Shown: one piece after another, positions 10,105-29,392 of the stretch
Layout: each line of letters starts with the position of its first letter
How positions within the stretch are numbered: the stretch's first letter is position 1
From: Promethearchaeota archaeon
GTDB taxonomy: Archaea > Asgardarchaeota > Lokiarchaeia > Sigyniarchaeales > SOKP01
DNA length: 32,000 nucleotides
Direction: 5' to 3'
Assembly: GCA_030606485.1 (NCBI GenBank)
Contig: JAUWGH010000001.1
Coordinates: forward strand, 540,001-572,000
Translations under genes and position numbers: made by a program
Notes under the pieces: model-generated
Databases searched by the model: none
What the model was told of the DNA's origin: nothing
The model's input: the letters and a program-made list of their open reading frames with translations, nothing else

Positions 10105-10266
10105 TTATTCTTTAAACTTTGAAGGTGGTGCTTTAATTTGCTCTTTTTCTTTATTAATTTCTAGTAATTCTGGTTTTTTATGCAATAGAGTCATGATTTC
10201 TTTAAAATTAAAAATTTCTCCCTCTTTATATAATTCATTGAAATTTTTTTTAGATAATTCGTAATC
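10105..10266 (-). pseudogene. 3' relic of a second SpsF-like cytidylyltransferase
   Basis: Translates DYELSKKNFNELYKEGEIFNFKEIMTLLHKKPELLEINKEKEQIKAPPSKFKE*; 31 of 53 residues identical by hand count to the C-terminus of the 12718-13458 protein. Confidence 0.85.
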
Positions 10267-11332: not shown

Positions 11333-12657
11333 TTATGTCAATCTTTGAAAGCCACTGTGGGCAACTGGACCTTCTAATAAATCGAAAATCTTGTTTTCCT
11401 TGATTCCTTGAGCAATAATATTAAAAACTTCATCAACAGCATTAAGATAATCTTCTACGATCTCTTTTGTATGACTATAACTGACATAAACACTAGAACT
11501 TGCTAAATATCCTCTTTTTAACATTTCTTGAGTAAAGAGAGTTTTAAGTTCTTGTGCATTTTCATAATTAAATGTAAAAGTGGTTAATGCATTAGGAGGT
11601 AATATTTCAATGTTAAGCAAATGATCTTTTGCTAATTTTTCCCATCCCCTACTAATCATCTCACCGATATAGTCTAAATGGGCAGGAACATTTTTATCCT
11701 GCATTTTTCTAATAGTAGCAAGTGCTGCTGTTGGACCAATGCGTTCAGTCCAATAAGTACTGCTTATAAAACTAGTCTGAGCAGCATCCATGATATTTCC
11801 CTTCCCTATTACAGCAGCCATAGGGTAGCCATTACTCATTGCTTTTCCTACAACCATCATATCTGGGTTAACATTGAAGGTTAAATGAGCTCCGCCAACG
11901 ATAAATCTCCAACCAGAGGTTGTTTCATCAAAAATTAAGACAGCGCCAATCTCATCAGATATTTCTCTAATTTTTTTGAGAAAATCGTTCTTCGGTTCCT
12001 GATGTCTTAGTGGTTCTACAACGATAACATCAATGTCATTTTCTTTTACTAATGCTTCTAATTGCTTATTTTATTATATTCGAAAGGTAGTGCAGTGTTG
12101 ATTAAACTTCTTGGAACTCCATTTGGATCGAGACCAGGTAGAAGATGCCCATTGAGACTTGCATTATCTGCCAAATTACTTGATAAGTACCAGTCATGCC
12201 AGCCGTGATAACCACAAAAAGCAATTTTATCTTTTTTCGTATAGGCGCGTGCGATTCGTATAGCAATTGTCATTACTTCTCCTCCTGTCCTTGCATAACG
12301 TACTGCATTGGCTCATGGATGAAGTTCAATTAAAAGCTCCGCTAATTCGACCTCTTCGGGACTATTTAAAGTAGTCATAGAGCCCTCACTAATTACTTTA
12401 AGGACGGCTTCGTTCACATCCAGATCAGCGTAACCAAGAGTACAAGCCCCAACGCCCATTATTGTCATATCAATGAATTTATTATCATCTAAATCCCATA
12501 TCTGAACACCCTTTGCTTTTTTATAATAAGAGGGCCAATGATCTGGTAAAAACATTTCGGACCTTTTGCTTAATAATTGAGATCCTCCGGGGATCAATTT
12601 TTTTGCTTTATTCCATAAATCTATTCCTTTTTGACAGTTCATAATTTCACAGCTCAA
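11333..12657 (-). pseudogene. Class III PLP aminotransferase (glutamate-semialdehyde aminomutase-like, glycan-cluster type) with an in-frame TGA and a one-base deletion
   Basis: Three tracked ORFs join into one 441 aa protein: HP*ANAVRYARTGGE (TGA at 12313-12315), shift near 12066 (KI-[E]-QLEAL), FCGYHGWHDWY, FDETTSGWR, GKAMSNGYP. TTG start. Confidence 0.88.
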
Positions 12658-12717: not shown

Positions 12718-13458
12718 TTATTTTTTTAGTTTCGGAAGTGAAGTTTTAATTTGTTTCTTGCCTTCATTAATTTTTATAATCTCTGGTTTATTAATTAGTA
12801 AAGTCATAATTTCTTTAAGAGTAAAGATTTCCCCTCCTGTATATAATTCATCAAAAATTCTTTTAAATAACTCATAATCTTCTAAATAATCTAAAGTCAA
12901 TCTCCATTCAGGGTGGTTGTATATTGGATCTTTTATTTTATATATAAAAACTCTGTATAAATCTGAGCGATTTAAGTATTCACCCCAAATCTCTGTATCG
13001 ATTTCATCTTTTTTCTTGATTGCATCTTCCATAGCGGTCATTTTTATTAAATATGTTTGAATACCAACAGGTAAGTCTTTACAAAATACAAAATCTGCAT
13101 TTTTTTCCTCAAAAAATTCTATCATTTTGTCCATTATAATAGGATCTGTAAATGCATTGTCTCCAGTTGTACTACAAATAACATCTGCTCCATATTTCTT
13201 TGCTCCATTAAAAATACGTAACATAACATCATCAGGATGCCCTCGATAAAATTTAATTCCATTTTTTTTGGCTATATCTATTAAAATATCATCTTCTTCT
13301 AATGAAGATGTGCATAAAATAATTTCAGAAGGTTTTTTGGCTAATTTTAATCTATCGATCATATGATCTATATATCTTTTGCCTTTTATTTCAAGAAGTA
13401 CCTTTTTTTGTAATCGTGTAGATTTCATTCTTACTGTAATTGTTATAACATATTTCAT
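12718..13458 (-). CDS. spsF: SpsF-like cytidylyltransferase (CMP-nonulosonate synthetase family)
   Basis: [40 protein letters not shown]. Confidence 0.85.
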
Positions 13459-13499: not shown

Positions 13500-15347
13500 T
13501 TAAAGATTTTTTTTAAAATCAGCAATTATTTGGTCCGTTGGAGAATAATTTTCTTTCGTGAACAATATATGTTCCAGACTTTCTTTCAACTTCTTTTTAT
13601 ATTCATTAAGTTTCTTAGGATTAGTTAATAATTCATTTAAATATTCAAATAGTTCTCTCTCATTATAAACTTTTTTAATATATTTTTCATCGTTATAATT
13701 GTACTTTCCAGAATAAAATACCGGTTTATTTACTAAATCCAAACAAATTACTGGTGTGCCAATTACCATTGAATCAAGAATTACGGCGGAATCTTGAGTT
13801 AAGACTATATCCGCTGAATTTATAATGTTAAAAATATTAATATTCTTAACTATTATCGCATCATATTCAACTTTATTTCTGAAATCTCTTAAAAAAGATC
13901 CATTTTCTCTAGGATGGAGTTTAATTATCAATTGAATATTAGTCATTCTTTTAAGAGTATTAACAATTGTGGATAATATAACTCTTTTGGGAGCTTTTGG
14001 AATTGGATTTGAGCAATATAAAATTTTTTTTTTATTATTTGAGAGATCATGTAAGATTTGAGTCGTATAATCTTTAACCTTATCAACTTTTTTAATACCA
14101 CCTTTTATGATTTTCTCGTATTTTGTAGAACCAATGATTTTTATCTTATTTGCTTCTACACCATTATTTGAAAGAAAAATTTTATCTATCTCACTATCCA
14201 CATATATTATATCACTTAACGAAGGCGTAATTTCCGAACCATCATTAGGAATACCTACATGCGGTAAAAAAAAAGTCTTAATACCATGTTTTTTACACAG
14301 AAAATAAGTAATACGTGATTCTGGAAAAAATTCATTAAAAGTTATTATCATTTTATAATTATTTAATTCCAATTCCTTTTCAATAGTTTTTTGCCAATAT
14401 GATATTTGTGGAATAATTTCAAAAAAAATATTTTTTAAAACATTAAAGCCAATATTTTGAATTGATTTTTTTAAATCTTTAACAAGTTCTTGTTTAAATT
14501 TTTTGTTTTTCCAAAATCTTTTAAATTTTAATTTTAATCTAATTCTTGTCATATATTGAAATTTAAAATCGGTTATTGTGGGATTATATTTAAAGAGTTC
14601 TGGACCAATTCTCTTATAACTAATCTTATTTTCTTTCATATATTTATTTAATAAGCCCATACCTCCCAATAAATATAATTTGGGGAGAATTATGCCAACA
14701 TCATAATGTTTTTGGAAATTCTGATATTTTGGTTTTATGTTAATATTTTTAAAGATTGATCTTAAATCATGCAAAATGTTATAAAAAAAAAGAGAAATCT
14801 TATCAAATAAATAAAATAATCTATCAATTTTACTCTTATAAAAAGACTTTTTCAGATTATCAATTTTAATATCCTTTTCAATGCATTCAAAAAGGTTTAA
14901 ATCTTTTTGAAGAAAAACAATATGAGTGGGATTTTCTCTCTCAATTATAGATTTAATAAAATCTATTTTTGGAAATAAATAATTTAAATCATATTTGATT
15001 TCAGATTCTAAAATTGTCCAAAAATGATTTAATCTTTTATATTTAGATTTTAATAAATTATTGTAAAATTGCTTTATCTTTAGCCAAATTTTTTCAACAT
15101 TAATTTGATACTTCTCTCTTTCAATATTCATGTATTCATTAATAACAGATTTAAAGGATGAGTTGTATCCTTTTCTATATAGAGCTTCATAACTTTTATT
15201 AAGACAAAACAAATGAACAAGAGGATTATTACCTTTATACTTTTTTTTTAATAAGGAAACTAATTTCATAATTTCTTGGTTTTTTAGAAAACGGTAATAT
15301 TTTGCTTTTTTTGACAGAAAAATATCAAAAAAAATTAAGATCTTCAT
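13500..15347 (-). CDS. Large GT-B protein, candidate CMP-nonulosonate transferase (CDP-glycerol transferase/UDP-GlcNAc epimerase-like fold)
   Basis: 615 aa; [42 protein letters not shown]. Paralog of 21412-23283; directly upstream of spsF. Confidence 0.6.
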
Positions 15348-16060: not shown

Positions 16061-17185
16061 CTAATGAATAGGTTCTTTTAATCGCCATATTCCATCTCGT
16101 TTTTCGACAAGATCTCTGTTAGCGTATTTTTCTACGACTTGCCAGAAGTATTCTTCTGTTATTTCAATAAAATCAAGAAAATCTTTTAATATTTTGGGAT
16201 CTAATTTATATTCATGTTCATTTGCAATTTTTACAGCCTCTTCTCGAGATATTCGCCCTTCTCTAATATCTAAACTTAAATAATCTGTGAGGACCCAATG
16301 TCCAAACTTTACGAATTTAAACCAAGTATGGGTTAAATATCCAACTGTATCAATCTGAAGGTAGTGCAATCCCGGTAACCCTTTACGTTCCCATTCACCA
16401 GTGTCTTTTAAAGTTTTCCACCCATTTTTTATTGCCCAGCGATAATTCTCATAATCACTCCAAGGCACGTAATAACTACAAAAGCGTGCTTCTATATCTG
16501 CTTTTTCAATTTCTTCCATAGTAGGGAAGATAATTGGATTTAAATCTTTCATTGTAATCTCATCATCCAACCATTCAACCAGTGGGATTGGTTTTACCAC
16601 ATCATTTTTAAGTTGCACAAGTGCATCGGGAATATTTTCTTTTACAGGACCACCGCGCTCGTATGATGTATTTTCACCCCAAATAACAAGGGGGATCCCC
16701 AACTTTATTGCCATCTGTAAAGGATAGGCATATATAGATCTATCCCAATACCAACATGGAATTAACTGTTTTTCAAAAGCTTTTTTGAACATTTTTCGAG
16801 CAACTTTACGATTTAAAGTTAAGAGATGAATATCAACTCCGAAACGATCCCCTAGGTTTACGTAATTCAACCGACCTGTTTCCGTCCAGCTAAAATTATC
16901 AATTGAAATACAAAGAGGATTCATACCTAATTTTTCTTTTAAAAGATGGATTTGGTAATAACTATCTTTCCCACTACTAGCAGTAATAAGGCAATCATAA
17001 TAGTTACCATTCCGTCCTCGGTGTTTATCTGCAAGAGCTTCAAATTCCTTCCACCTTGCATCCCAATCAATATTTTTTCGATCTTCATATCTTTTACAAG
17101 GCATACAGATTCCATCGTCATCAAAAGAGATATAAGGTCTTGTATCAGGCATTATACATTTTTTACAATATCTCATTTTATTCAA
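16061..17185 (-). CDS. N-acetyl sugar amidotransferase (WbuX/PseA-like, PP-loop)
   Basis: YCKKCIMPDTRP and GICMPC Cys cluster, YDCLITASSGKDSYYQ PP-loop, IWGEN, DIREGRISREEA. Confidence 0.9.
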   Translation of the reverse strand: MNKMRYCKKCIMPDTRPYISFDDDGICMPCKRYEDRKNIDWDARWKEFEALADKHRGRNGNYYDCLITASSGKDSYYQIHLLKEKLGMNPLCISIDNFSWTETGRLNYVNLGDRFGVDIHLLTLNRKVARKMFKKAFEKQLIPCWYWDRSIYAYPLQMAIKLGIPLVIWGENTSYERGGPVKENIPDALVQLKNDVVKPIPLVEWLDDEITMKDLNPIIFPTMEEIEKADIEARFCSYYVPWSDYENYRWAIKNGWKTLKDTGEWERKGLPGLHYLQIDTVGYLTHTWFKFVKFGHWVLTDYLSLDIREGRISREEAVKIANEHEYKLDPKILKDFLDFIEITEEYFWQVVEKYANRDLVEKRDGIWRLKEPIH

Positions 17186-17388: not shown

Positions 17389-18432
17389 TTACAATAAATC
17401 ATCAAATGTTATATTATAATATTTTTTAATATCTTTTTGAGTAATTTTTCCTTCAATTTCATTAAATTTATCTGGTGGTATCCCTGGTTCATTTCTTAGA
17501 AACATAACATTTTCCCTGGTAATTTTACTACCTTTAGCAATATCCTTTATTGCCACTATACTTTTTTTACAATAGGCTCGATAAATTAGTTCACCCTCCG
17601 TAAAACTTCTAATTTCTTTCTTTCCTATACTTTTTTCGCATATTCTCAATAGATTTACAAAATCTATGAAATTTTCAGGGTTTAATGAAGATTCATAATC
17701 AATTCCTTTATCTTCTCTAGTTAGAATAAAGTGTTTTTCAATAACACTAGCTCCATATCCAATAGACATAATTGGAATAATTTTTGCTAAAATTGAACCT
17801 GCATCAATATGATCATAGAATCCAATATTTAAACCAAATATTCTTTCTAAAGATCTGATATAATTTAAATTTGAATCCTCAATTCTAGTAGGAAATCCTT
17901 GATAACCATGCATCAATATTAGATCTTTATTTCCATTTTTTCTTAGATAATCAATTGCTTTTTTTATTTCAGCAACAGTTGAAGCTCCACAACCTAGAAA
18001 TATTGGCTTCTTAGACATAGCAACTTTTTTTAAAAGTTCTGGATTTGAGATATCAGATGAATGTACTTTAAAAGCGTCAACTCCTTTATCTATTAAAAAT
18101 TTTATACTTTCAATATCATATCCCGCAGCAAAGAATATTATATCCTCCTTCTTTATTATTTCTATCACTTTTGACCATTCATCTTGTGTTAATTCTAATC
18201 GCTTAATTAAATCATAATCTTTATAGATTGGAGACATATATCTCTCTTTTTTAAATACTTGAATCTGAATTGCATCTGCTGTAGCTTTAGCTGCTAAATT
18301 AACTAAATCGCATGCATTTTTAACATTTCCTTGGTGAGCACAAGCCATTTCTGCGATTAAAAATGTAGGATATCCTTCTCCAATAATTTTATTTTTAATT
18401 TTCATTGGTTCTACCATAATATATATCTCCAA
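17389..18432 (-). CDS. Divergent NeuB/SpsE-family synthase with C-terminal SAF domain
   Basis: IAEMACAHQG, GFYDH, IEKHF, KKSIVA...RNEPG. True start is probably ATG 18417 (MVEPMK), by alignment to the 27070 paralog. Confidence 0.88.
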   Translation of the reverse strand: MEIYIMVEPMKIKNKIIGEGYPTFLIAEMACAHQGNVKNACDLVNLAAKATADAIQIQVFKKERYMSPIYKDYDLIKRLELTQDEWSKVIEIIKKEDIIFFAAGYDIESIKFLIDKGVDAFKVHSSDISNPELLKKVAMSKKPIFLGCGASTVAEIKKAIDYLRKNGNKDLILMHGYQGFPTRIEDSNLNYIRSLERIFGLNIGFYDHIDAGSILAKIIPIMSIGYGASVIEKHFILTREDKGIDYESSLNPENFIDFVNLLRICEKSIGKKEIRSFTEGELIYRAYCKKSIVAIKDIAKGSKITRENVMFLRNEPGIPPDKFNEIEGKITQKDIKKYYNITFDDLL

Positions 18433-18544
18433 AAGAGTAGATTAATTAATAATATTTAATAGTTTAAAAAAAGTTTTTATTTAATAATAAAGTAGAAATT
18501 AATTTTTTATGATTTATTGAATTTAAAATTAAAAATAGAATTTA

Positions 18545-19597
18545 ATGAAAGAAATTTCAATTAATGGAAAAAAAATCGGACCTGAATCACCTATTTTTTT
18601 AATTGCCGAAGCCGGAGTAAATCATAACGGTAAATTAAATTTAGCTAAAAAGATGATTGATATCGCCCTTGAGGCGAAGGTAGATGCTATAAAGTTTCAA
18701 ACCTTTTCAACAGAAAAATTATTATTAAAAACAACTCCAAAAATTAAATATCAGAAAGAAAACGTAGAAGACCAAGAAAATTTTTATGATATGCTCAAAA
18801 AGTATGAATTAACGATAGAAGATTTTAAAATCCTAAATAATTATTGCAAAGAAATAGGTTTAATATTTCTATCTACTCCTTTTGATGAAATTTCAGTTAA
18901 ATGGTTAGATATTTTAAATATTTCTGCTTTTAAAATTGGTTCTGGTGATATGAATAATTTTCCGTTATTAAAATTGATTTCTTCAAAAAAAAAACCAATT
19001 TTGTTATCAACAGGTATGGCAACTTTGGAAGAGGTTATAGAATCAGTCAATTTCTTAAAATCAAACAATGTTGAAGATATAGTTATTTTTCAATGCACCA
19101 CAAATTATCCTTCAAATTATGAAGAAATAAATCTTAATGTTATTGATACGTATAAGAAAGAATTTCCAAATAATATTATTGGATTCTCTGATCATTCTTT
19201 AGGATTTGAAGCATCTATTGGAGCTGCTGCAAAAGGAGTAAAAGTTATAGAGAAACATTTTACTATAAATAAAGAAATGGATGGACCGGATCATAAAGCT
19301 TCTCTAAATCCTAGAGAGTTAAAAGAATGGGTAAAACACATAAGGAATCTTGAAAAAGCACTAGGGGATTATAAAAAATTTCCTTCAAAAAATGAACAAG
19401 AAATTGCTAAAATTGCGAGAAAAAGCATTGTTACTTTAAGTGATTTGAAAGAAGGAGATTTAATAAAAAGGGAAGATATAGATATAAAAAGACCGGGATA
19501 TGGTATATCTCCAAAATATTTTAACTCCTTAATTGGAAAAACTATTAAAAGGAATGTTCCAAAAAATTCAATTCTTTTCTGGGAGGATGTAGAATAA
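18545..19597 (+). CDS. neuB: Canonical N-acetylneuraminate/legionaminate synthase
   Basis: IAEAGVNHNG, IKFQTF, STPFD, KIGSGD, LSTGM, TNYP, GFSDHS, IEKHFT, GPDHKASL, KRPG. Confidence 0.95.
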   Translation: MKEISINGKKIGPESPIFLIAEAGVNHNGKLNLAKKMIDIALEAKVDAIKFQTFSTEKLLLKTTPKIKYQKENVEDQENFYDMLKKYELTIEDFKILNNYCKEIGLIFLSTPFDEISVKWLDILNISAFKIGSGDMNNFPLLKLISSKKKPILLSTGMATLEEVIESVNFLKSNNVEDIVIFQCTTNYPSNYEEINLNVIDTYKKEFPNNIIGFSDHSLGFEASIGAAAKGVKVIEKHFTINKEMDGPDHKASLNPRELKEWVKHIRNLEKALGDYKKFPSKNEQEIAKIARKSIVTLSDLKEGDLIKREDIDIKRPGYGISPKYFNSLIGKTIKRNVPKNSILFWEDVE

Positions 19598-20767
19598 TTG
19601 TCTAAAAAAAAAATATGTATTGTCACAGGAGCTAGATCCGATTATGCTTATCTAGAATTAATAATAAAAAAGGTTGAAGAATCTGAAAACTTAGAATTAT
19701 CTTTGTTTGTAACAGGTCTACATTTATTAAAAAAATATGGTGAAACAATTAAAATAATAAAAAATGATGGATTTCCAATAAAAAAAGTTATACTTATGTA
19801 TGATGAAAATAATTTCGAACAAGAGAATTTAGGTAAGTATGTTGGAAAAGCAATACTAAACTTTACAGAAGCATTGAATGAAGAAAAACCAGATATATTG
19901 TTAGTATTGGGAGATAGATATGAACCTTTAGCTGCAGTTATTGCTGCTACTACCTTATCGATACCAATTGCCCATATTCATGGTGGTGATAATGTTTTTC
20001 AAGGACAAGTTGATGAACAAATTCGACATGCTATTACAAAATTCGCTCATATCCATTTTCCTGCAACTCAAAAAAGCGAAAGAAGAATTGAATTACTGGG
20101 CGAAGAAAAGTGGAGAATTCATATGGTTGGTTCCCCAACTATAGATAAAATTAACTTAGAGAAAAAAAAATTAATAAGTAAGGAGGATATTTGCAAAGAT
20201 TTTAAATTTACTAGGTATGAAAAATTAGTTCTTTGTATTCAACATCCATATATATTTGAAGCGGAATTGGCGGGTTCGCAAATAAAAACCACGCTTGATG
20301 TACTAAAAAAACTTAGTTTGCAAACAATTATTATATATCCAAATAATGATCCAGGCAGTGATTTAATAATAAAAGAAATAGAATCCAATAGGGATGTGCA
20401 AAATTTTAGAATTCGTAAGAATTTAGAGAGAAAAGTATATTTAAGTTTATTGAATAACGTAAATCTCTTAATTGGAAATTCAAGTGGTGGATTAATTGAA
20501 TCACCAATGTTTAAATTACCAGTAGTAAATATAGGAGATAGAAATAGAGGAAGAGAGAGTGGTGATAATGTAATTAATGTTGCTCCAGTTTACTCAGAAA
20601 TTGAAAAAAGTGTAAGTAAAGCATTTTCAGACGAATTTAAAGCATTTTGTAAAATGGTAAAAAATCCTTATGGAGATGGAAAAGCTTCGGATCGGATAAT
20701 TAAAATATTAGAAAATTTAGAAATAAATGTGAAATTAATGAAAAAAAGATTAACTTATGATGTTTAA
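19598..20767 (+). CDS. neuC: Hydrolysing UDP-N-acetylhexosamine 2-epimerase (NeuC/LegG-like)
   Basis: VTGARSDY, LGDRYE, HIHGGD, RHAITKFAHIHF, GNSSGG, NPYGDG. TTG start abuts the neuB stop. Confidence 0.95.
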   Translation: MSKKKICIVTGARSDYAYLELIIKKVEESENLELSLFVTGLHLLKKYGETIKIIKNDGFPIKKVILMYDENNFEQENLGKYVGKAILNFTEALNEEKPDILLVLGDRYEPLAAVIAATTLSIPIAHIHGGDNVFQGQVDEQIRHAITKFAHIHFPATQKSERRIELLGEEKWRIHMVGSPTIDKINLEKKKLISKEDICKDFKFTRYEKLVLCIQHPYIFEAELAGSQIKTTLDVLKKLSLQTIIIYPNNDPGSDLIIKEIESNRDVQNFRIRKNLERKVYLSLLNNVNLLIGNSSGGLIESPMFKLPVVNIGDRNRGRESGDNVINVAPVYSEIEKSVSKAFSDEFKAFCKMVKNPYGDGKASDRIIKILENLEINVKLMKKRLTYDV

Positions 20768-21273
20768 ATATCTTCAAATTTAACTTTTGGGCGATTTCCT
20801 ATTACTTTACATGGATTTCCTACGTTTATTGTCCATGGTTTAACATCTTTCAAAACTAGACTATTACTACCGATAATTGCCCCCTTACCAATTATAACTC
20901 CTGGATGGACAACTGAATTTGTCCCTATAAATGCATCCTTTTCGATCCTCACAAATGAAACCTTAACGTTTCTTTGTTCTTTAGGCAAAACAGTTGACAT
21001 CCTATGCCCTCCATGGTATGTATCAGTACCAGTTAATATTCTTGCTCCATCTGCTAATACAGTGTAATCTCCTAAATAGAGTTTTCCCCCACCAATAACG
21101 CTCACAAAACGAGATATATGAACATATCTTCCGATTTTTATACCATTTCCTCCATAAATAAAGGTAAAATCATCTATTTCAGAGAAGTCTCCGATTTCTA
21201 TAACTTCAGGTTTTATAATTTTTGCAGAGTCAAAAATTTTGACACCCTTACCGATTTTTTTAAATTGATTCAT
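20764..21273 (-). CDS. Hexapeptide-repeat (left-handed beta-helix) acyltransferase
   Basis: IGKGVKI, IGDFSEI, IGRYVHI, IEKDAFIG, IGKGAIIG repeats and VGNP; stop shares TTAA with neuC. Confidence 0.88.
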   Translation of the reverse strand: MNQFKKIGKGVKIFDSAKIIKPEVIEIGDFSEIDDFTFIYGGNGIKIGRYVHISRFVSVIGGGKLYLGDYTVLADGARILTGTDTYHGGHRMSTVLPKEQRNVKVSFVRIEKDAFIGTNSVVHPGVIIGKGAIIGSNSLVLKDVKPWTINVGNPCKVIGNRPKVKFEDI

Positions 21274-21411
21274 ATTGAATATATAGAATTTAAAAAAATT
21301 AATAATATCATTCTTTCTATTGAAATAATTAAAAATTAAAAAATAACAAAATTCAGAGAGATTGAAATTACCTAAGATGATATTTTTACAACCATAATGT
21401 GAATTGTAGTT

Positions 21412-23283
21412 TTAACATTGTTTTAATATCAATTTAATAATTTTTTCAGTCGAAGGCTCATTTTCATCATAAAAATTGAATAAATGGGAGCTCTTCATAA
21501 TTTCTTTAGAATAATTTTTATAGAATTCCTTATTAGTGATCAATTCTTTCATTAGTTTTTTCAGTGATTCGAGTGACTTTGCAATTTTTATAAACTTCTC
21601 ATCGCTAAAGGAATATCTTCCTGTATACTGAAATCCTCTATTTAGAAAATCTAATAAAATAACTGGAATCCCTATTATCATTGCCTCTAAAATTGTAGTA
21701 GATAAGGTAGTTAATAATAGATCGCATGATTTAATTAATTCTAAAATATTAACATCTCTCACAATTATTGCATTTGAATTTAAGTCTTGTACAATTTTTT
21801 TATGAAGAATTCCATCTTCTCTTGGATGAAGCTTTATAATTAAATTTTTATCAAGATTTAACTCTTTTAAAGAATAAATAATTGTAGTAATTATCCTTGT
21901 AAGAAATTTTCTCCCAATAGGACTTGATGTGAATAATATTTTAAATTTATCTTTTTCAAATTTATATTTTGAGTTATTAAACATATCATTAATTTTATAT
22001 AATTGTTTTATTTCACCTTTATAGAAATTATCATAACGTGGATATCCTGTAATTTTGATCTTATCCTTTGGTTCCCCTTTTTTTTTATAATACTCTAAAC
22101 CAGACTCCCCTCCTACTATAATATAAGTAAAATCCCTCTTGCAAATAAATTCATCATAAATAGGGGTTCCGGCATGAGGAACATAAATAATCGGAATATT
22201 ATTCATCTTACAAATTTTAGCATATCCCTTACCCTCTATTTTCATTTCATCAGCTGAAACAACAAAATTTGGAGAGTTTACTTTAATAATTTGATTAAAA
22301 TGAATAAAATTGTTAAAAATCTCGATTAAAATATAAAACAGCTTCATATCGTAAAAATTTTTCATAAAAAATTTTAGAGTAAATCCATTGTAATTCAAAT
22401 TTTTTAATATTTTATCTTCATTATCCTTCCAAATTCTTCTTTTCTGGATTAAAAATTTTACTTCTTTATTCAAATGTTTTTTTGGGAAAAAATTTTTATT
22501 AGAATAATAAAAGGCATTAACAGATTTATATTGTTTTAATTTTAGATATATTGGATTTATGCTATTGAAGTGATTTTTAGTATTTGCAATAAACATAATA
22601 TTTTTTTTTCCATTTTTCCTAAAGACATCCTCGTTTGGAAATTTTTTATTAATATAAATTTTAATAGAACCAGCTAATCGAGTAAGAAAGTAAGTAAAAA
22701 AATTTAGAAAAATTAAAAATTTTGAAAGTCTCTTTCTTAAAGGATCTCGATACATCTCGATCTTAATACAGTCGAGGTTTAATAAGTGAAGGATTTCTAA
22801 AGAGCTTTTAGAATAGTTAAATAAAATAATTTTATCATAATTACTATTATGAATAAGTAATCTTAATAATTCAATCTTACCTAAAATGGTTTTAAAATAT
22901 TCAGTCATATTTAGTTCTAATAAATTACCAATAGAAATACCTTGAAAATGAAATGTCCTTAAATTATTTAGATTATTAATAAACTTGATAAAAAGTTCTT
23001 TAGTTTTATTTTTGATCTTATTTTTTAATTTTAAAAATTCAGTCCTGTCAAGGTCGATTCTAAAATCTGAAAGATAATTAATTAAAATATTTTCTTTAAT
23101 CTCAAATTTTTCTTGCGTATCAATTATAAACTCGATTTTTATATCTTTACCATATGTTTTTCTTAATTTATTAATATGGGTTTTTAATTTGAATTTTTTA
23201 TGCTTTAATAAAAGTTTAATTATGAATTTGGGCAGATGTGAATAAAATGGGCTGAAAAAATTATCTATAATTAATATTTGCAT
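21412..23283 (-). CDS. Large GT-B protein, candidate CMP-nonulosonate transferase
   Basis: 623 aa; [44 protein letters not shown]. Paralog of 13500-15347. Confidence 0.6.
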   Translation of the reverse strand: MQILIIDNFFSPFYSHLPKFIIKLLLKHKKFKLKTHINKLRKTYGKDIKIEFIIDTQEKFEIKENILINYLSDFRIDLDRTEFLKLKNKIKNKTKELFIKFINNLNNLRTFHFQGISIGNLLELNMTEYFKTILGKIELLRLLIHNSNYDKIILFNYSKSSLEILHLLNLDCIKIEMYRDPLRKRLSKFLIFLNFFTYFLTRLAGSIKIYINKKFPNEDVFRKNGKKNIMFIANTKNHFNSINPIYLKLKQYKSVNAFYYSNKNFFPKKHLNKEVKFLIQKRRIWKDNEDKILKNLNYNGFTLKFFMKNFYDMKLFYILIEIFNNFIHFNQIIKVNSPNFVVSADEMKIEGKGYAKICKMNNIPIIYVPHAGTPIYDEFICKRDFTYIIVGGESGLEYYKKKGEPKDKIKITGYPRYDNFYKGEIKQLYKINDMFNNSKYKFEKDKFKILFTSSPIGRKFLTRIITTIIYSLKELNLDKNLIIKLHPREDGILHKKIVQDLNSNAIIVRDVNILELIKSCDLLLTTLSTTILEAMIIGIPVILLDFLNRGFQYTGRYSFSDEKFIKIAKSLESLKKLMKELITNKEFYKNYSKEIMKSSHLFNFYDENEPSTEKIIKLILKQC

Positions 23284-23301
23284 TATAAATCTTTGATTAA
23301 A

Positions 23302-23559
23302 TTAATTAAAATCATCATATATTAAATTATATTTTTTTTATATCTTTTTTAACTACATTACCTTCAATTTCTTTAAATTTAACAGGTGATTCCCTAGGTC
23401 ATTCCAAACAAATATAACCTTTTCATGAATAATTTTATCACCTTAAGAAATATCAATTTTTGCGACAATAATTTTTTTACAATATATACGATAATTTAAT
23501 TCTCTTTCCATTAACTCTCTAATCTTATTGCTACCGTTTGTGTTTTCGCTTTCTCTCAA
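23302..23559 (-). pseudogene. 3' relic of a divergent NeuB (SAF-domain region)
   Basis: LRESENTNGSNKIRELMERELNYRIYCKKIIVAKIDIS*GDKIIHEKVIFVWNDLG/SPVKFKEIEGNVVKKDI/KKYNLIYDDFN* aligns with the 17389 and 27070 C-termini. One internal stop and two frameshifts. Confidence 0.85.
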
Positions 23560-23992
23560 TTATTTATTTATTTCTAGATAGATTTGATGGTATTCAGTAT
23601 ATCTCACATACCAAGCTGTATCAATGTCAATTACTATATTAAAAAAATTATCATCAAAAGGTATTTCTCTCATGTCAGCGATTAAAAAACATTTTTTAAA
23701 ATCGTTAAGTATTATAATTTCTTCTTCCAATCTTCTATCAAATTTCATAATTCTTGATTTTGCAATATCAATTCCATGTACATCGAATCCCTCTCGAATT
23801 AAAAACCAGGAATTTGCACCGTGTCTAATTCTTAAATCAAAAATTTTGATTTGTTTTCTTTCATTAAGTTGTAATCTGAAAAAATTTCTTTCAATGAACC
23901 TTACTAATTTTTCATTAGGATATCTCCCCCACGATCTTGAGGATTGGATTTGTTTCCATTGGTGTTCGTTAGAATTGGTTACTTTTTATCAC
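23560..23992 (-). pseudogene. 5' part of a class I SAM methyltransferase, truncated and degraded
   Basis: Open frame 23985-23560: WGRYPNEKLVRFIERNF...KIFDLRIRHGANSWFLIREGFDVHGIDI...ADMREIPFDDNFFNIVID. The Gly-rich SAM motif reads DLRIRHG; the GTG at 23992 is off-frame by one A. Confidence 0.8.
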
Positions 23993-24322
23993 TTATTTAT
24001 TCAGTTTTATTTCAATTATTTTATTATGTTCATAATTTTAATTAAAATATTTTAATTTTTTTACTTAATTTTTTTTTAATATCGATTATTGAGATTTTAC
24101 TAATAATTTTATTGATTTCATAAGGTTTTAATGTTCCATTTGCTCGTTTAATTACAAATTATAGATCAAAGATATAATCTTGATGATATGAATATTATTT
24201 TAGATAAGGTCAAAACTGTTGTATAAAATTTTTTTAAGGGATTATATGTTTTTATAATTAAGTTAAATATGTCCGAATAATTAAAGAAGATAATTTTATT
24301 TATTCTGTGAAGTGAAAATATT

Positions 24323-25369
24323 TTGGATTTCTCATCTTTTTTTGAGGATAAGGTTATTTTAGTAACTGGTGGAACAGGTTCAATTGGTTCTGAAATTGTG
24401 GCAAAATTGCTAAATTACAATCCAAATACTATTCGTATATTAACCAATTCAGAAAATGAATTGTGGGAAACAAAACTAAGATTTAAAAAATTTAGTGAAA
24501 AACTTCGATTTCTTTTAGGAGATATTAGAAATTTTGAAAGGATGAAACGGGCTACAAAAGAGGTTGATTTTGTTTTTAATGCAGCTGCGATAAAACATGT
24601 CCCTTTTAGTGAATATAATCCAATAGAAGCGACTAATGTAAATATCTTCGGTTTAGAAAATATTATAGAAAGTTGTTTTATTAATCGTGTTAAAAAATTA
24701 GTTCATATTTCTACAGATAAAGCTGTTAATCCAACCACTGTGATGGGTGCAACTAAAATGCTTGGAGAGCGTTTATGTATTTCACGAGATTTTGCTAAGG
24801 GAGCCTCACCAACTAATATCGCTTGTGTTCGATTTGGGAATGTGCTTGGGTCTAGAGGTTCGATCATTCCTTTAATTAAAAATCAAATTAAAACAGGCGA
24901 TATAGTTACCTTAACAGATGAAAAAATGAATAGATTTTTCGTGTCAATTTCTCAAGCTGCTGAATTAATTTTGCAAGCAATGGTTCTGGCAAAAGGAGGA
25001 GAAATTTTTGTATTAAAAATGCCAACTATACATATTAAAGATTTAATAGAAATAATAATTGAAGAATATGCCCCAAAAATTGGAAAGAATCCCAATTCAA
25101 TAAAGATTAAAGTTGTTGGACCTCGTTTGGGGGAAAAAACCGACGAGTATCTAATCTCGAGTATTGAGTTCTTCTCATGTTATGAAATGGCTGATATGTA
25201 TATCATCTATCCAATGTTAAATTTTGGGGGAAATATACAAGCTAGAGAGATCATTAGGAATAGTAAAGCTGTCAAAATTGATGAAAACTTTAAATATTGC
25301 ACAGAAAATGGAAAACCTTTAAGTAAATCAGAAATAAAAGAAACTCTTAGAAAATTCAACTTAATTTAA
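24323..25369 (+). CDS. UDP-N-acetylglucosamine 4,6-dehydratase family (CapD/PseB/FnlA-type, soluble)
   Basis: ILVTGGTGSIG, AAAIKHVP, STDKAVNP, MGATK, VRFGNVLGSRGS; TTG start. Confidence 0.93.
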   Translation: MDFSSFFEDKVILVTGGTGSIGSEIVAKLLNYNPNTIRILTNSENELWETKLRFKKFSEKLRFLLGDIRNFERMKRATKEVDFVFNAAAIKHVPFSEYNPIEATNVNIFGLENIIESCFINRVKKLVHISTDKAVNPTTVMGATKMLGERLCISRDFAKGASPTNIACVRFGNVLGSRGSIIPLIKNQIKTGDIVTLTDEKMNRFFVSISQAAELILQAMVLAKGGEIFVLKMPTIHIKDLIEIIIEEYAPKIGKNPNSIKIKVVGPRLGEKTDEYLISSIEFFSCYEMADMYIIYPMLNFGGNIQAREIIRNSKAVKIDENFKYCTENGKPLSKSEIKETLRKFNLI

Positions 25370-25386
25370 TTCATGTGTGATTCTTA

Positions 25387-26523
25387 ATGGCAAAAAAATA
25401 TCCACTTTTTGATATCTATTGGGATAAAGAAGATATTCAAATGGTTACACATATTATTAAAAGAGGTTCTTATTGGGCAGCTGGTCCAGAAATACAAGAA
25501 TTTGAAAAAAAACTTTCAAAATATTTTAATACAAAATATGTTGTAACGTTTAATTCAGGGACTTCTGCTCTGTATTCTGTACTTTTAGCTTATGAAATAA
25601 CTTCAGGTGAGGTAATCGTCCCTTCAATGTCCTTTATTTCTACTGCCAACGCTGTTATTTTAGCAGGAGCAAAACCTGTTTTTGCTGAAATCGAAAAGGA
25701 AACAATTGGCTTAGATCCAGAAGATGTGAAGAAAAAAATTACTGATAAAACTAAAGCTATTATTCCAATGCATTATGGAGGTAAAGTTTGCAAAAATATT
25801 GAGGTTTTGCGTGAAATCGCTGATGAACATGGATTAATCCTTATCGAAGATAATGCAGAAAGTTTTGGAGCAAAAATTAATGATAAATTTGCAGGAACTA
25901 TTGGACATGCTGGTATGCTTAGTTTTTGTCAAAATAAAATTATAACAACGGGAGAGGGTGGTGCTATTTGCACAAATGATGAGAAAATCTATGAAAAACT
26001 ACTTTTAATTAGATCTCATGGTCGTGTTGAAAAACCCGGAACTGATTATTTTTCAAATATCAATGTTTCAGATTATATTCAAGTGGGATATAATTATAGA
26101 ATGCCTACAATGTGTGCTGCCTTAGGTATTTCTCAATTAAAAAAGATTGAAAAAATTATAGAATTAAGGAGAAAACGAGGTAAATATTATGATGAAAATC
26201 TCAAAGAAATACCTAAAATTGACATCATTCCAGAATTAATTGGAAGTAGAACAGTATATCAGTTATATAGTATTTTATTGAAAAATCTTGAGAAAAGGTC
26301 TAAATTACAAAATTATCTCTTAAAGAATGGGATATTTACTAAAATTTATTTCGAACCCATTCATTTGAAGACATTTTATAGAAAAAAATTTGGATATCAT
26401 GAAGGGAATCTTCCAATAACTGAGAGTCTCTCAAGCAGAATCTTAACTCTCCCATTTTCATTGCTATTTAAAGATGAAGATCAGGATTATATCATAAATA
26501 CAATAAAAAATTTCTTTAATTGA
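25387..26523 (+). CDS. DegT/DnrJ/EryC1/StrS sugar aminotransferase
   Basis: NSGTSAL, IEDNAES, SFCQNKIITTGEGG, GYNYRM; follows the dehydratase. Confidence 0.93.
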   Translation: MAKKYPLFDIYWDKEDIQMVTHIIKRGSYWAAGPEIQEFEKKLSKYFNTKYVVTFNSGTSALYSVLLAYEITSGEVIVPSMSFISTANAVILAGAKPVFAEIEKETIGLDPEDVKKKITDKTKAIIPMHYGGKVCKNIEVLREIADEHGLILIEDNAESFGAKINDKFAGTIGHAGMLSFCQNKIITTGEGGAICTNDEKIYEKLLLIRSHGRVEKPGTDYFSNINVSDYIQVGYNYRMPTMCAALGISQLKKIEKIIELRRKRGKYYDENLKEIPKIDIIPELIGSRTVYQLYSILLKNLEKRSKLQNYLLKNGIFTKIYFEPIHLKTFYRKKFGYHEGNLPITESLSSRILTLPFSLLFKDEDQDYIINTIKNFFN

Positions 26524-26564
26524 TTTAAACCAAGTTCATAATGAACCCTCTTTGTCAATTTCTT

Positions 26565-27065
26565 CTATTTCTTTTTCCTCTTAAAATAATAATTTTTTAA
26601 CAATATTACCTATAAACCATTCTAACCGAAAATATAGATGTATTTTTCCCAAATAATTCTTAAAATCTCAATAACAACTAATAAAACTATGAATTACATA
26701 AGTTTTATATAAACAGGAAAACTGCTCTTAAAATCTTTATTAAAAAATGTAGAAAATAAAAATATTCCCACATTCATAATTCTGAAATGTACATAATATA
26801 GGGAAAATGAAAGTTCAACCCAATTTTCAAGAGAATTGATCATAATTGGTGTTTTAGCCTCTTTATCAAATAGATATCGAGAAAGAATAAGTATAATTAA
26901 TAATCATTCGATTATAGTATCAAATTTAAGTTCAGGAATCTTAAAATTATGAAGCAATAAAAAAAAATTCATGCCCAAAATAAGTAATAAGATTCCAATT
27001 ACTAACAAAGATATAAATAAATATTGGTCTTCATTTAATATTATTGAGATATGAGAGGAGTTGTA
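26565..27065 (-). pseudogene. Relic of a multi-pass membrane protein (possibly acyltransferase/DUF1624/DUF418-like C-terminus)
   Basis: One frame stays hydrophobic and protein-like across three stops: ...LVIGILLLILG...IIE*LLIILILS...ELSFSLYYVHF...KLM*FIVFISCY*DFKNYLG...RLEWFIG...KRKKK*. Family assignment is weak. Confidence 0.5.
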
Positions 27066-27069
27066 AGAT

Positions 27070-28095
27070 ATGATAAAACCTATTAAAATTAAAGAAAAAG
27101 TCATTGGAGAGACATATCCTACATTTTTGATTGCCGAAATGGCATGTGCACATCAAGGAGATGTTAAACAAGCGTGTGAATTAGTTGATGTTGCGGCTAG
27201 AGCAAAAGCAGATGCAATTCAAATTCAAGTGTATAAAAAAGAAATATATATGAATCCCCTTTATGAAAGTTATGATTTAATCACTCGGTTAGAATTATCT
27301 CAAAATGAGTGGCTAAAAGTAATTAATAAAATTAAAAAGAAGAATATGTTATTCTTTGCTGCCGGTTATGATATATATAGCATAAAATTTTTAATTGAAA
27401 ATGGCGTTGACGCATTTAAAATCCATTCTGCCGATATATCTAATCCTGAAGTTTTAAAAGAAGTTGCTAAACCAAGGAAACCTATATTTTTAAGTTGTGG
27501 TGCTTCAAAAGTAGATGAAATTAAAAAAGCAATTGATTTTTTGAGAAAAAACGGAGTAGATGATGTCATATTAATGCATGGATATCAAGGATTTCCAACA
27601 AAGATAGAAGATAATCATTTAAATTATATAAAAACCTTAAGACGGTTGTTTGGTTTAAATGTAGGCTATTATGATCATGTAGATGGAGGTTCTATTTTAG
27701 CAAAAATAATTCCCATTATGGCTATAGGTTATGGAGCTCAGGCTATTGAGAAACACTTCATATTATCTAGAGAAAATAAAGGTATTGATTAGGAATCGTC
27801 TTTAGATAAGGAAAATTTCATAGAATTTTGTTCGCTTTTAAGGGAATGTGAAAAAGCAATAGGGACAAAAGAAGTAAGAAGCCTTACTGAAGGGGAATTA
27901 AACTATCGGGCATACGCTAAAAAAAGCATCGTTGCGTGTGTTGAAATCCCAAAAGGAACTAAGATCACTCGAGATAAAGTTATGTTTGTTAGAAGCGATC
28001 CGGGCATTCCACCTGATAAATTTCAAGAAATTGAAGGAAAAACGGCAAAAAAAGACATTAAACGATATCACAATATCACATATGACGCTTTTTAA
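27070..28095 (+). pseudogene. Divergent NeuB paralog interrupted by a single in-frame TAG
   Basis: GID*ESSLDKENF...YRAYAKKSIVA...RSDPGIPPDKF...YHNITYDAF* stays in frame to TAA 28093-28095 (342 codons). TAG 27790-27792 replaces the Tyr of paralog GIDYES. Confidence 0.88.
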
Positions 28096-28168: not shown

Positions 28169-29392
28169 ATGATTAATAATCTAAAATCAATGTTTTCGTC
28201 AATAAAATTTATCTCAAAAAAGATATTCTCCCGAATATCACTAAAACATTTTATTAGTGATGTTTACTTTAGTTTTTTGAGTTATTTTCGCCGATATTTG
28301 CAAAGAAGAATGGTTGCTGAGAAGAAATTCATCAGAAGTATTTTTGATTATTTTTCAGATAAATTGGATGAGATTGAATATAAAAAATTAGCACCCAGAA
28401 GGCACATACTATTTAATGAAGAAGAAAAGCAATTTTTAGATCTTAATATAAAATGCTCAAAAAGAATAAAAAGGAATAAAGAAAAGGGTTATATTCAAAA
28501 AGAAGTATTCTCTTGTAAATTCAAAAATATAAAATTTTTTGGTCATTCTGGAGGTTTTACCTTCGGAAAAAAGCCCTTATTAGAATCTACTGCTACATTA
28601 AATCGCTTACGCAACTATACATTTACGGTAAATACTCCTCTCTTGGTACATAAACGGATGAAAGGTGTATTTACTTCTCTAATGCATATTGAAAATCATA
28701 TCTATTATCATTTTTTATTTGAAGGCATTCCAAGGTTTTATGGTATTTTACAAATTGAGGAACCAGAAATAAATCTAATAATTCCTGAGAATACTCCTAA
28801 ATGGCAAATTGAAATATTTAAAATTTTTTTAGATAAGAGATTTAAACTTTTACATATAAAAAAAAATGAAGTTTGGGAATTAGAAAATTATTACTTTCCT
28901 TCTTTTTGGCATGTTGATTGCTCAGCTTACATTCCCCGTGAATTATTAAATTTCTTTAGAAATAAGATATTTGAGTATTATAAGATTGACACAAACATAA
29001 AAAGAAACAGAAGGCTAATCCTAAGCAGAGAAAAAGTTAAGCGTAGGCATATTTTAAATAGAAAACAATTTTTAAATTTATTAAAAAAATATAATTTTGA
29101 AAATGTCCATCCACAAGATATGACCTTTAAAGAACAAGTGGAACTATTTAATTCTGCCGAAATTGTAATTGGAATGGAGGGATCTGCTTTTGTTAATGTT
29201 GTTTTTGGTACTAATCTTAAAGTAGTGGTGATCTTTCCATCAAATTATATTACAACTCATTGGATGCTTTCTTCCAAATCATTAAATTTTACTTATAGAT
29301 ATACAATAGGCTACAACTCGACTCCAAAGTTTGACTGCAAGGTAGATTTAGATGAGGTTGAGAAGATTGTAAAAGAATTATTAGAAAATTAG
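28169..29392 (+). CDS. GT61 / DUF563 glycosyltransferase
   Basis: IYYHFLFEGIPR, LILSRE...RRHILN, TFKEQVELFNSAEIVIGMEGSAFVNVVF. Confidence 0.85.
   Translation: MINNLKSMFSSIKFISKKIFSRISLKHFISDVYFSFLSYFRRYLQRRMVAEKKFIRSIFDYFSDKLDEIEYKKLAPRRHILFNEEEKQFLDLNIKCSKRIKRNKEKGYIQKEVFSCKFKNIKFFGHSGGFTFGKKPLLESTATLNRLRNYTFTVNTPLLVHKRMKGVFTSLMHIENHIYYHFLFEGIPRFYGILQIEEPEINLIIPENTPKWQIEIFKIFLDKRFKLLHIKKNEVWELENYYFPSFWHVDCSAYIPRELLNFFRNKIFEYYKIDTNIKRNRRLILSREKVKRRHILNRKQFLNLLKKYNFENVHPQDMTFKEQVELFNSAEIVIGMEGSAFVNVVFGTNLKVVVIFPSNYITTHWMLSSKSLNFTYRYTIGYNSTPKFDCKVDLDEVEKIVKELLEN

Follow-up and report, generated by a model that had tools for sequence, protein, structure and literature searches.

We analyzed a 32,000-nucleotide stretch of the genome of a Promethearchaeota archaeon (GenBank assembly GCA_030606485.1, contig JAUWGH010000001.1, positions 540,001 to 572,000; hereafter the window) and found in it an intact gene, here called copy 1, for a divergent member of the NeuB family, encoded head-to-head with a canonical (class I) NeuB. 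The branch to which copy 1 belongs is a real, conserved, and uncharacterized variant of a known enzyme family. The retention of all universally conserved catalytic and metal-binding residues suggests that copy 1 is most likely an active enzyme, and we tentatively favor the reading that it is a second, separate ulosonic-acid synthase, homodimeric and with a product distinct from that of the class I NeuB. An earlier note on this DNA, made by a model from the letters alone, had placed three divergent NeuB genes beside the canonical one. All three are real, but only copy 1 is intact, with copy 2 carrying a nonsense mutation and the third being a remnant.

Copy 1 has the domains and fold of a NeuB synthase

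The features of the window on which the argument turns are:
17389-18417, minus strand: divergent NeuB copy 1, intact, 342 aa; NeuB TIM barrel plus SAF domain, Gln53/Cys28 "MACAHQG" type
18418-18544, no strand: AT-rich intergenic region between the divergently transcribed copy 1 and class I NeuB (head-to-head layout)
18545-19597, plus strand: class I (canonical) NeuB/LegI-type nonulosonic acid synthase, 350 aa; TIGR03569 at 419.2 bits, above the 399.65 cut-off

The likely start of copy 1 is the ATG at 18417, with the open frame extending to a TTG at 18432, and the encoded protein is identical to the cluster representative P0001. It scores above the Pfam cut-offs for both NeuB (PF03102, 186.4 bits; cut-off 22.1) and SAF (PF08666, 32.2 bits; cut-off 21), and it falls below the equivalog cut-offs for N-acetylneuraminate synthase (TIGR03569, NeuB_NnaB; 239 bits against 399.65) and pseudaminic acid synthase (TIGR03586, PseI; 206.8 bits against 340.25). 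An AlphaFold2 model of copy 1 (predicted local distance difference test score of 85) shows a TIM-barrel plus antifreeze-like (SAF) fold. In Foldseek searches, this model matched NeuB and PseI structures (1XUU, 2WQP, and 8H2C) with template modeling (TM) scores of 0.78 to 0.85, and the next best matches were the phosphoenolpyruvate (PEP)-using synthases of 3-deoxy-D-arabino-heptulosonate 7-phosphate and 3-deoxy-D-manno-octulosonate 8-phosphate. A look-alike search of the ESM Atlas returned generic NeuB-family clusters only. The class I protein had SpsE (1VLI) and Neisseria meningitidis NeuB (NmNeuB, 1XUU) as its top PDB matches. Copies 1 and 2 are 73% identical overall, each being 32 to 35% identical to the class I copy, and a previous hand count of 45 identities over their first 60 residues was exact.

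The catalytic core is kept and the donor pocket is remodeled

Residues are numbered as in NmNeuB, with positions derived from HMMER pairwise alignment. The earlier note had listed eight motif contrasts between the canonical and the divergent copies, and all eight were reproduced, both in a MAFFT alignment of 224 sequences and in HMMER pairwise alignments to PseI and NmNeuB. Relative to NmNeuB, the divergent type carries K53Q, I28C, T110A, G131H, S154G/S, N184Q, Y186F, S213Y, and E134D (the last as in many archaeal and eukaryotic enzymes), and it keeps E25, H30, Q55, K129, S132, D214, H215, E234, H236, D247, and R314. Conservation across the 210 family members sampled is at least 95% at E25, H30, D214, H215, E234, H236, D247, and R314, and the metal-binding His pair (H215/H236) and catalytic acids (E25/E234) of characterized class I synthases are invariant in the divergent clade. 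The roles of the catalytic and metal-binding residues are those described for NeuB (PMC8208679, PMC6795526, PMC11339185). From the SAF domain, Arg314 extends to the sugar's acetamido group in the opposite subunit (PMC8208679); its equivalent, R304 of copy 1, is invariant in the clade, which would point to a 2-acylamido sugar.

The residues that contact PEP in class I enzymes are not the same in copy 1: Lys53, Thr110, Ser154, Asn184, and Ser213 are replaced by Gln, Ala, Gly, Gln, and Tyr, respectively, although position 154 is Ser in most of the clade. These differences had been read as a loss of PEP contacts. The contrasts are real, but the changes are in part conservative: on the phosphate side of the pocket Ser213 becomes Tyr, Asn184 becomes Gln, and Ser132 is kept, as is Ser154 in most members, and Lys129 is retained as well. 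This conservative pattern on the phosphate side suggests that PEP is the most likely donor. A question for that assignment concerns Lys53, a ligand of the PEP carboxylate in the NmNeuB-PEP structure, and we return to it below. A different substrate or chemistry, as proposed in the earlier note, is therefore no more than a possibility. We additionally observed class-wide changes that occur together in the barrel (A27, G182, and Q184) and in the SAF linker that reaches the active site of the other subunit, a co-variation that fits a dimer of like subunits.

The divergent proteins form a conserved clade within a large, non-canonical part of the family

A word-indexed search recovered about 80 clusters that are 54 to 74% identical to copy 1, nearly all of 341 to 342 aa, which collapse to essentially one representative at 50% clustering. 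The few named members are Thor-, Prometh-, or Hodarchaeota (Asgard archaea), and most of the others are sediment sequences. In a FastTree phylogeny of 210 family members, these MACAHQG-type proteins form a branch of 71 rows with 100% support, nested in a 120-row group (support 94) that has Gln53 in all rows; the class I enzymes group elsewhere in the tree, on a branch of their own. The Gln53 group also holds a 29-row branch, whose few named members are Bacteroidota, and it includes Proteobacteria. The other non-canonical members retain Lys53, and among them are fusions to cytidine monophosphate (CMP)-transferases.

Among 27 clade members that are 54 to 74% identical to copy 1, 66 alignment columns are invariant, including the whole catalytic set and every residue described as rewired in the earlier note. 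Its proposal that the shared changes reflect selection rather than decay thus holds at the level of the clade. The rewiring is not special to the three copies in the window: the features mark a large non-canonical part of PF03102, with Gln53/Cys28 in 120 of the 210 rows. Column statistics separate what is specific from what is shared. Only the Gln53 group has the signature Met26/Cys28/Gln53, in which Cys28 is present in 119 of 120 rows; A27, G182, Q184, and two SAF-linker residues are common to all non-canonical members; and the xQxFP, variable-213, and K-x-H-S features mark the very large non-canonical part of the family. Positions 53 and 110 change together, with Lys53 of non-canonical members paired with an acidic residue 110 (50 rows) and Gln53 paired with a non-acidic residue 110 (119 of 120 rows). 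The rewired site is thus real and correlated, yet it belongs to a large, old part of the family.

The divergent type has a patchy distribution. This genome was the only one of 201 species genomes from its phylum to carry it, and the genome collection held one other species representative with it, labelled Promethearchaeota. We also considered whether the divergent type ever serves as the sole NeuB of a genome. A survey of PF03102 in 301 genomes from a single bacterial class gave five single-copy cases with low scores, of which four were examined; all four were class I variants and none was of the divergent type. The Pfam bit score alone cannot separate the classes, so this survey gives no count.

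The divergent NeuB accompanies class I synthases of three pathway types

We examined about 45 related loci and found the divergent NeuB always within nonulosonic-acid clusters. It lies head-to-head with a class I NeuB in 17 distinct loci, including the window, with 112 to 464 bp between the tblastn matches. The class I partners are of three types. In type A, the partner is 63 to 70% identical to the class I gene of the window and is accompanied by PseB/PseC-like genes, a hexapeptide acetyltransferase, and NeuC. In type B, a NeuB of 338 aa precedes NanE and a haloacid dehalogenase (HAD) phosphatase, which suggests a phosphorylated route of the N-acetylneuraminic acid (Neu5Ac) type. The type C partner, a NeuB of 348 aa, occurs with PseB-like and DegT genes, a GNAT, and a protein of the Epimerase_2 family. 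Across loci of these three pathways the divergent protein is 61 to 74% identical, whereas its class I partners are 33 to 70% identical; between type A and type B loci specifically, the values are 61 to 65% for the divergent protein and 33 to 36% for the partners.

The common downstream neighbors of the divergent NeuB are the CMP-transferase of the cluster or a GT61 glycosyltransferase. In loci L019, L028, L039, L041/L067, and L058, the next gene downstream on that strand encodes a CMP-transferase, and the distant relatives L014, L015, L050, and L052 show the same order. Distant bacterial Gln53 relatives again occur in two-synthase clusters with an adjoining CMP-transferase. In some arrangements, several kilobases around the divergent NeuB are free of any class I gene, namely the copy-2 type (PseB-PseC-divergent NeuB-GT61, in the window and L020) and L023, L026, and L028.

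The genome itself (3.75 Mb in 13 contigs, archaeal as judged from its small-subunit ribosomal RNA) has five PF03102 matches, all on one contig within 60 kb: two class I genes (one in the window and one outside), one gene of a third type outside the window, and the two divergent copies. Within these 60 kb there are four intact genes of the NeuB family and four genes for CMP-sugar-acid cytidylyltransferases (CTP_transf_3).

Three related contigs carry further details of gene content. In L066 (7311-11038, Bacteroidota) and in the JGI contig of P0085, a Gln53-type NeuB lies near a CMP-transferase gene and a gene of the dihydrodipicolinate synthase (DHDPS) family (aldolase-like), and a separate cassette of class I NeuB, PglD-like, AP_endonuc_2, and CBS-aminotransferase genes lies a few kilobases away. 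In L066 an acyltransferase gene lies in between. In a sediment contig that carries an Asgard-type divergent NeuB (L068:6787-9793), the class I partner is followed by NanE (ManNAc-6-P epimerase), a HAD phosphatase, and a CMP-transferase gene, an order that recalls the phosphorylated sialic acid route of the animal or Bacteroides kind.

Two duplicates of the divergent gene are in decay

27070-28095, plus strand: divergent NeuB copy 2, 341 codons with a single in-frame TAG at 27790-27792; recent pseudogene
23318-23580, minus strand: relic of a third divergent-type NeuB, SAF-domain part of 80 residues with a frameshift and stops

The codon interrupted in copy 2 encodes Tyr in copy 1 and in all relatives, and the first 240 residues of copy 2 still score 164.8 bits against Pfam NeuB. 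Copy 2 is 94% identical to its intact orthologue P0004 (loci L020 and L021), where the flanking GT61 gene is 98.8% identical. The same TAG is present in contigs from two other samples, and a related strain from another study reads TAC (Tyr) at the site. Thus, from the recurrence of the TAG, the TAC of the related strain, and the identity to P0004, copy 2 is a real, recent, strain-level pseudogene. An assembly error was rejected because the contigs from the two other samples carry the same G, and read-through with pyrrolysine was rejected because no PylS scored above cut-off in the genome and the related strain has TAC. The ratio of nonsynonymous to synonymous substitution rates (dN/dS) between copy 2 and the intact orthologue is about 0.43 to 0.50, based on few changes, and this is the only pair for which the ratio is usable, most clade pairs being too diverged. 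Copies 1 and 2 fall in different sub-clades of the tree and are therefore not the result of a recent tandem duplication. A search for a small gene in the 550-bp gap upstream of copy 2 found none, here or at the orthologous locus L020.

The relic matches residues 253 to 332 of both divergent copies (tblastn, E values of 1e-11 to 1e-13) and has no similarity to the class I copies, in agreement with the earlier assignment of the relic to the divergent type. It spans the SAF domain only and so carries none of the active-site motifs.

A separate synthase is the favored reading

In the reading that we tentatively favor, copy 1 would be a working enzyme of a deep branch of the NeuB family of α-carboxyketose synthases. 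It would act as a homodimeric, metal-dependent synthase that joins a 2-acylamido aldose to PEP held in a carboxylate pocket that has been remodeled, and it would thereby yield a second ulosonic (sialic-acid-like) sugar beside that of the adjacent class I NeuB; this sugar acid would then be CMP-activated, and a transferase of the island would place it on a cell-surface glycan. The full catalytic and metal set, the NeuB/PseI-like fold, the strong selection across the clade, and the tie to CMP-transferase genes all point to an active, metal-dependent condensing enzyme, and the fusion of related non-canonical members to a CMP-transferase likewise supports a synthase. The divergent protein is far more conserved than its varied class I partners, which argues for a constant job of its own. 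This conservation, the co-variation of barrel and SAF linker, and the four synthases and four CMP-transferases of the genome are our reasons for favoring a separate, homodimeric enzyme.

Several observations weigh against this reading. Gln takes the place of Lys53 in all 120 rows of the Gln53 group, and Thr110 is replaced too, so that ordinary PEP binding is not assured. In most related loci, a stretch of about 20 kb shows two synthases but a single CMP-transferase, and no dedicated precursor genes could be assigned to the divergent NeuB. A class I NeuB was also present in all five of the genomes examined that carry a Gln53-type gene, and the divergent NeuB is usually transcribed divergently from the class I gene, which would also fit functional dependence on class I. 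Two alternatives stay alive because Lys53 and Thr110 are lost, most loci have a single CMP-transferase, and the divergent gene lies head-to-head with a class I gene that is its constant companion; one alternative invokes a mixed dimer and the other a different chemistry.

The divergent protein could form an obligate or facultative heteromer with the class I NeuB, a domain-swapped dimer in which the SAF domains cap each other's barrel and the divergent subunit tunes specificity or regulation and makes no product of its own. Such an assembly would fit the head-to-head pairs, the constant company of class I, the single CMP-transferase of most loci, and the invariance of R314, which reaches across the dimer interface. 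Within the divergent protein, sub-clades also track the type of partner, but shared inheritance of whole clusters explains this tracking equally well. A co-adapting interface is hard to square with a divergent protein that stays 61 to 65% identical while its type A and type B partners are only 33 to 36% identical. The divergent protein moreover retains a full catalytic set, its barrel and SAF-linker changes co-vary within its own class, and some arrangements (the copy-2 type, L023, L026, and L028) have no class I gene within several kilobases. We regard a heteromer as rather unlikely. Alternatively, the Gln53 clade could use a donor other than PEP (e.g., pyruvate) or act on a finished nonulosonic acid (e.g., by a metal-dependent retro-aldol/aldol reaction at C4), a step common to the three pathway types. 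Met26/Cys28/Gln53 being the only clade-specific signature, with the Cys nearly invariant, and the coupling of residues 53 and 110, which amounts to a correlated remodeling of one side of the pocket, are consistent with altered chemistry; so is the constant co-occurrence with a class I synthase, and the divergent protein accompanies the legionaminic acid (Leg)-like, the NanE/phosphatase-type, and the third pathway alike, as a pathway-generic step would. On the other side, the kept or conservatively replaced residues on the phosphate side argue that a phosphorylated donor would still be bound, adjacency to CMP-transferase genes fits a synthase, and to our knowledge no such donor switch or retro-aldol reaction is known for the NeuB fold. 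This alternative is, in our judgment, unlikely. A broader claim, that the Gln53/Cys28 clade of Asgard-type archaea and several bacterial phyla either carries out a reaction new to the fold (with a non-PEP donor or on a finished nonulosonic acid) or forms an obligatory hybrid-site heterodimer with class I, is doubtful; a new reaction common to Leg-, neuraminic acid (Neu)-, and pseudaminic acid (Pse)-type pathways, or an obligatory heterodimer, would explain why no Gln53 type was seen without a class I NeuB.

Two simpler explanations fare less well than a separate synthase. Copy 1 might be a redundant isozyme, one that shares both reaction and sugar with the neighboring class I NeuB and is kept for regulation or for other conditions; it shares the cluster and comes without separate precursor genes, and copies of its type are readily lost in this genome. 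Identity of only 32 to 35% to the partner and a systematically different pocket make redundancy improbable, and a pairing conserved across archaea and bacteria with three partner types would be unlikely for a mere spare. That the divergent type is a non-functional or decaying paralogue, as the stop in copy 2, the remnant state of the third copy, and the dN/dS of copy 2 might suggest, is very improbable: copy 1 is intact, the 66 columns invariant in the clade include the whole catalytic set, and the nonsense mutation of copy 2 is specific to the strain.

The window is a surface-glycan island

Domain and family profile searches identified the entire window (G+C of about 25%) as a surface-glycan island, and its DNA is also present in cold-seep and marine-sediment metagenomes. 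The island encodes an ATP-binding cassette exporter, methyltransferases, glycosyltransferases, a CMP-transferase, a WbuX amidotransferase, PseB-like and PseC-like enzymes, a NeuC-type epimerase, a hexapeptide acetyltransferase, and three large GT-B-like proteins. The genes around the two divergent copies are:
12718-13458, minus strand: CMP-sugar-acid cytidylyltransferase (CTP_transf_3), the sole intact one in the window
16061-17185, minus strand: WbuX-type N-acetyl sugar amidotransferase; TIGR03573 at 318 bits, above the 203.2 cut-off; same strand as copy 1 and directly downstream of it
19598-20767, plus strand: NeuC-type hydrolyzing UDP-sugar 2-epimerase; TIGR03568 at 409 bits, above the 235.9 cut-off
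20764-21273, minus strand: hexapeptide-repeat acetyltransferase, 169 aa (Pfam Hexapep), kept beside NeuC in related loci
21412-23283, minus strand: GT-B-like protein, 623 aa, candidate nonulosonate transferase; weak profile matches, recurs in related loci
24323-25369, plus strand: PseB-like 4,6-dehydratase, below the equivalog cut-off
25387-26523, plus strand: PseC/LegC-like aminotransferase, below the equivalog cut-off
28169-29392, plus strand: GT61-family glycosyltransferase (Pfam), a frequent downstream neighbor of the divergent NeuB

The region at 18418-18544 may act as a shared bidirectional promoter for copy 1 and the class I NeuB. Three GT-B-like paralogues, all on the minus strand, have 543 aa (3563-5194), 615 aa (13500-15347), and 623 aa (21412-23283). 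The 615-aa and 623-aa proteins have weak Epimerase_2 matches, the 623-aa protein also has weak Capsule_synth, GT1, TIGR04396, and BFO_1060-family matches, and the 543-aa protein has no Pfam match. The three, which are candidate nonulosonate transferases, are found again next to the divergent NeuB at other loci.

Other sequences in the island are incomplete. Two minus-strand fragments (11333-11860 and 12313-12657, covering Pfam positions 254-333 and 10-82, respectively) look like one broken class-III aminotransferase gene, and a CMP-transferase remnant on the minus strand at 10111-10266 consists of 52 residues that are 60% identical to the C-terminus of the 12718-13458 gene product; together these point to active gene turnover in the island. 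Directly upstream of the NeuB relic, a minus-strand frame at 23560-23760 resembles part of an S-adenosylmethionine-dependent methyltransferase ("...ADMREIPFDDNFFNIVI..." motif); the gene is incomplete and may be a further remnant.

Two observations lie outside the window. The NeuB-family gene of the third type, at ~529.7-530.7 kb of the same contig (L005:1402-2391), encodes a 329-aa protein with the motif "AEFCQNHLG" on a long tree branch; it is flanked by a D-2-hydroxyacid dehydrogenase-like gene on one side and a gene for a 391-aa protein on the other, with CTP_transf_3 just upstream. An archaeal small-subunit ribosomal RNA match (L087, C2:448544-451002) ends at model position 945 of 1478, where the examined stretch also ends, and the whole-genome match covers positions 4-828, so this gene may be interrupted or split.

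Relation to known synthases and significance

Among characterized enzymes, NmNeuB/SiaC (1XUU/1XUZ) has the same Pfam NeuB TIM barrel plus SAF architecture, and the copy 1 model superimposes on it with TM scores of 0.78 to 0.80; at 26% identity, the divergent protein differs in its pocket residues and keeps the metal-binding His pair. The best match of copy 1 among solved structures, by both sequence (E value of 6e-36) and structure (TM score of 0.85), is Campylobacter jejuni PseI (8H2C), and copy 2 follows PseB-like and PseC-like genes. However, PseI has class I motifs (K-I-Q, S-S-P-F, S-T-G, S-x-Y-P, and S-D-H), and no equivalents of PseG or PseH were found beside the divergent NeuB. The dehydratase, aminotransferase, hexapeptide acetyltransferase, NeuC-type epimerase, synthase, and CMP-transferase genes of the window correspond to a Leg-type pathway, as for LegI and Bacillus subtilis SpsE (1VLI), but the adjacent class I NeuB already serves as the synthase of this pathway, and the divergent protein is a seventh, extra gene.

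Other counterparts are uncharacterized non-canonical NeuB proteins, such as the NeuB-cytidylyltransferase fusions (e.g., of Nitrosopumilus) and the Bacteroidota "MACAHDG" proteins. These share A27, G182, Q184, K-x-H/N-S, and D-Y/H-x-S with the divergent protein, and the Bacteroidota group also shares Gln53/Cys28; like the divergent protein, they occur in two-synthase clusters beside a CMP-transferase. They are 36 to 45% identical to it, and the Asgard-type clade stands apart on its own fully supported branch, with Tyr213 and H-Q-G. We found no biochemical test of the fusion or Bacteroidota proteins in the literature. Nor did we find any paper describing or testing the clade, including work on Asgard nonulosonic acids and on paralogous NeuB genes, which bears out the earlier view of an undescribed subfamily. 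A large phylogenetic survey lumps such sequences with synthases and notes their poor annotation (PMC8208679).

The branch matters for how annotations of this family are read. Sialic-acid-like sugars shape the recognition of microbial surfaces, nonulosonate synthases serve as markers that predict which sugar an organism makes, and Asgard archaea are the closest known relatives of eukaryotes. A branch without the presumed PEP-holding Lys, with an invariant Cys and always in the company of an ordinary synthase, implies that "NeuB" annotations hide at least one further activity, in Asgard archaea, Bacteroidota, and Proteobacteria alike. The identity of its product could reveal a second sugar acid on these organisms or a chemistry of the family beyond the condensation of PEP with an aldose.

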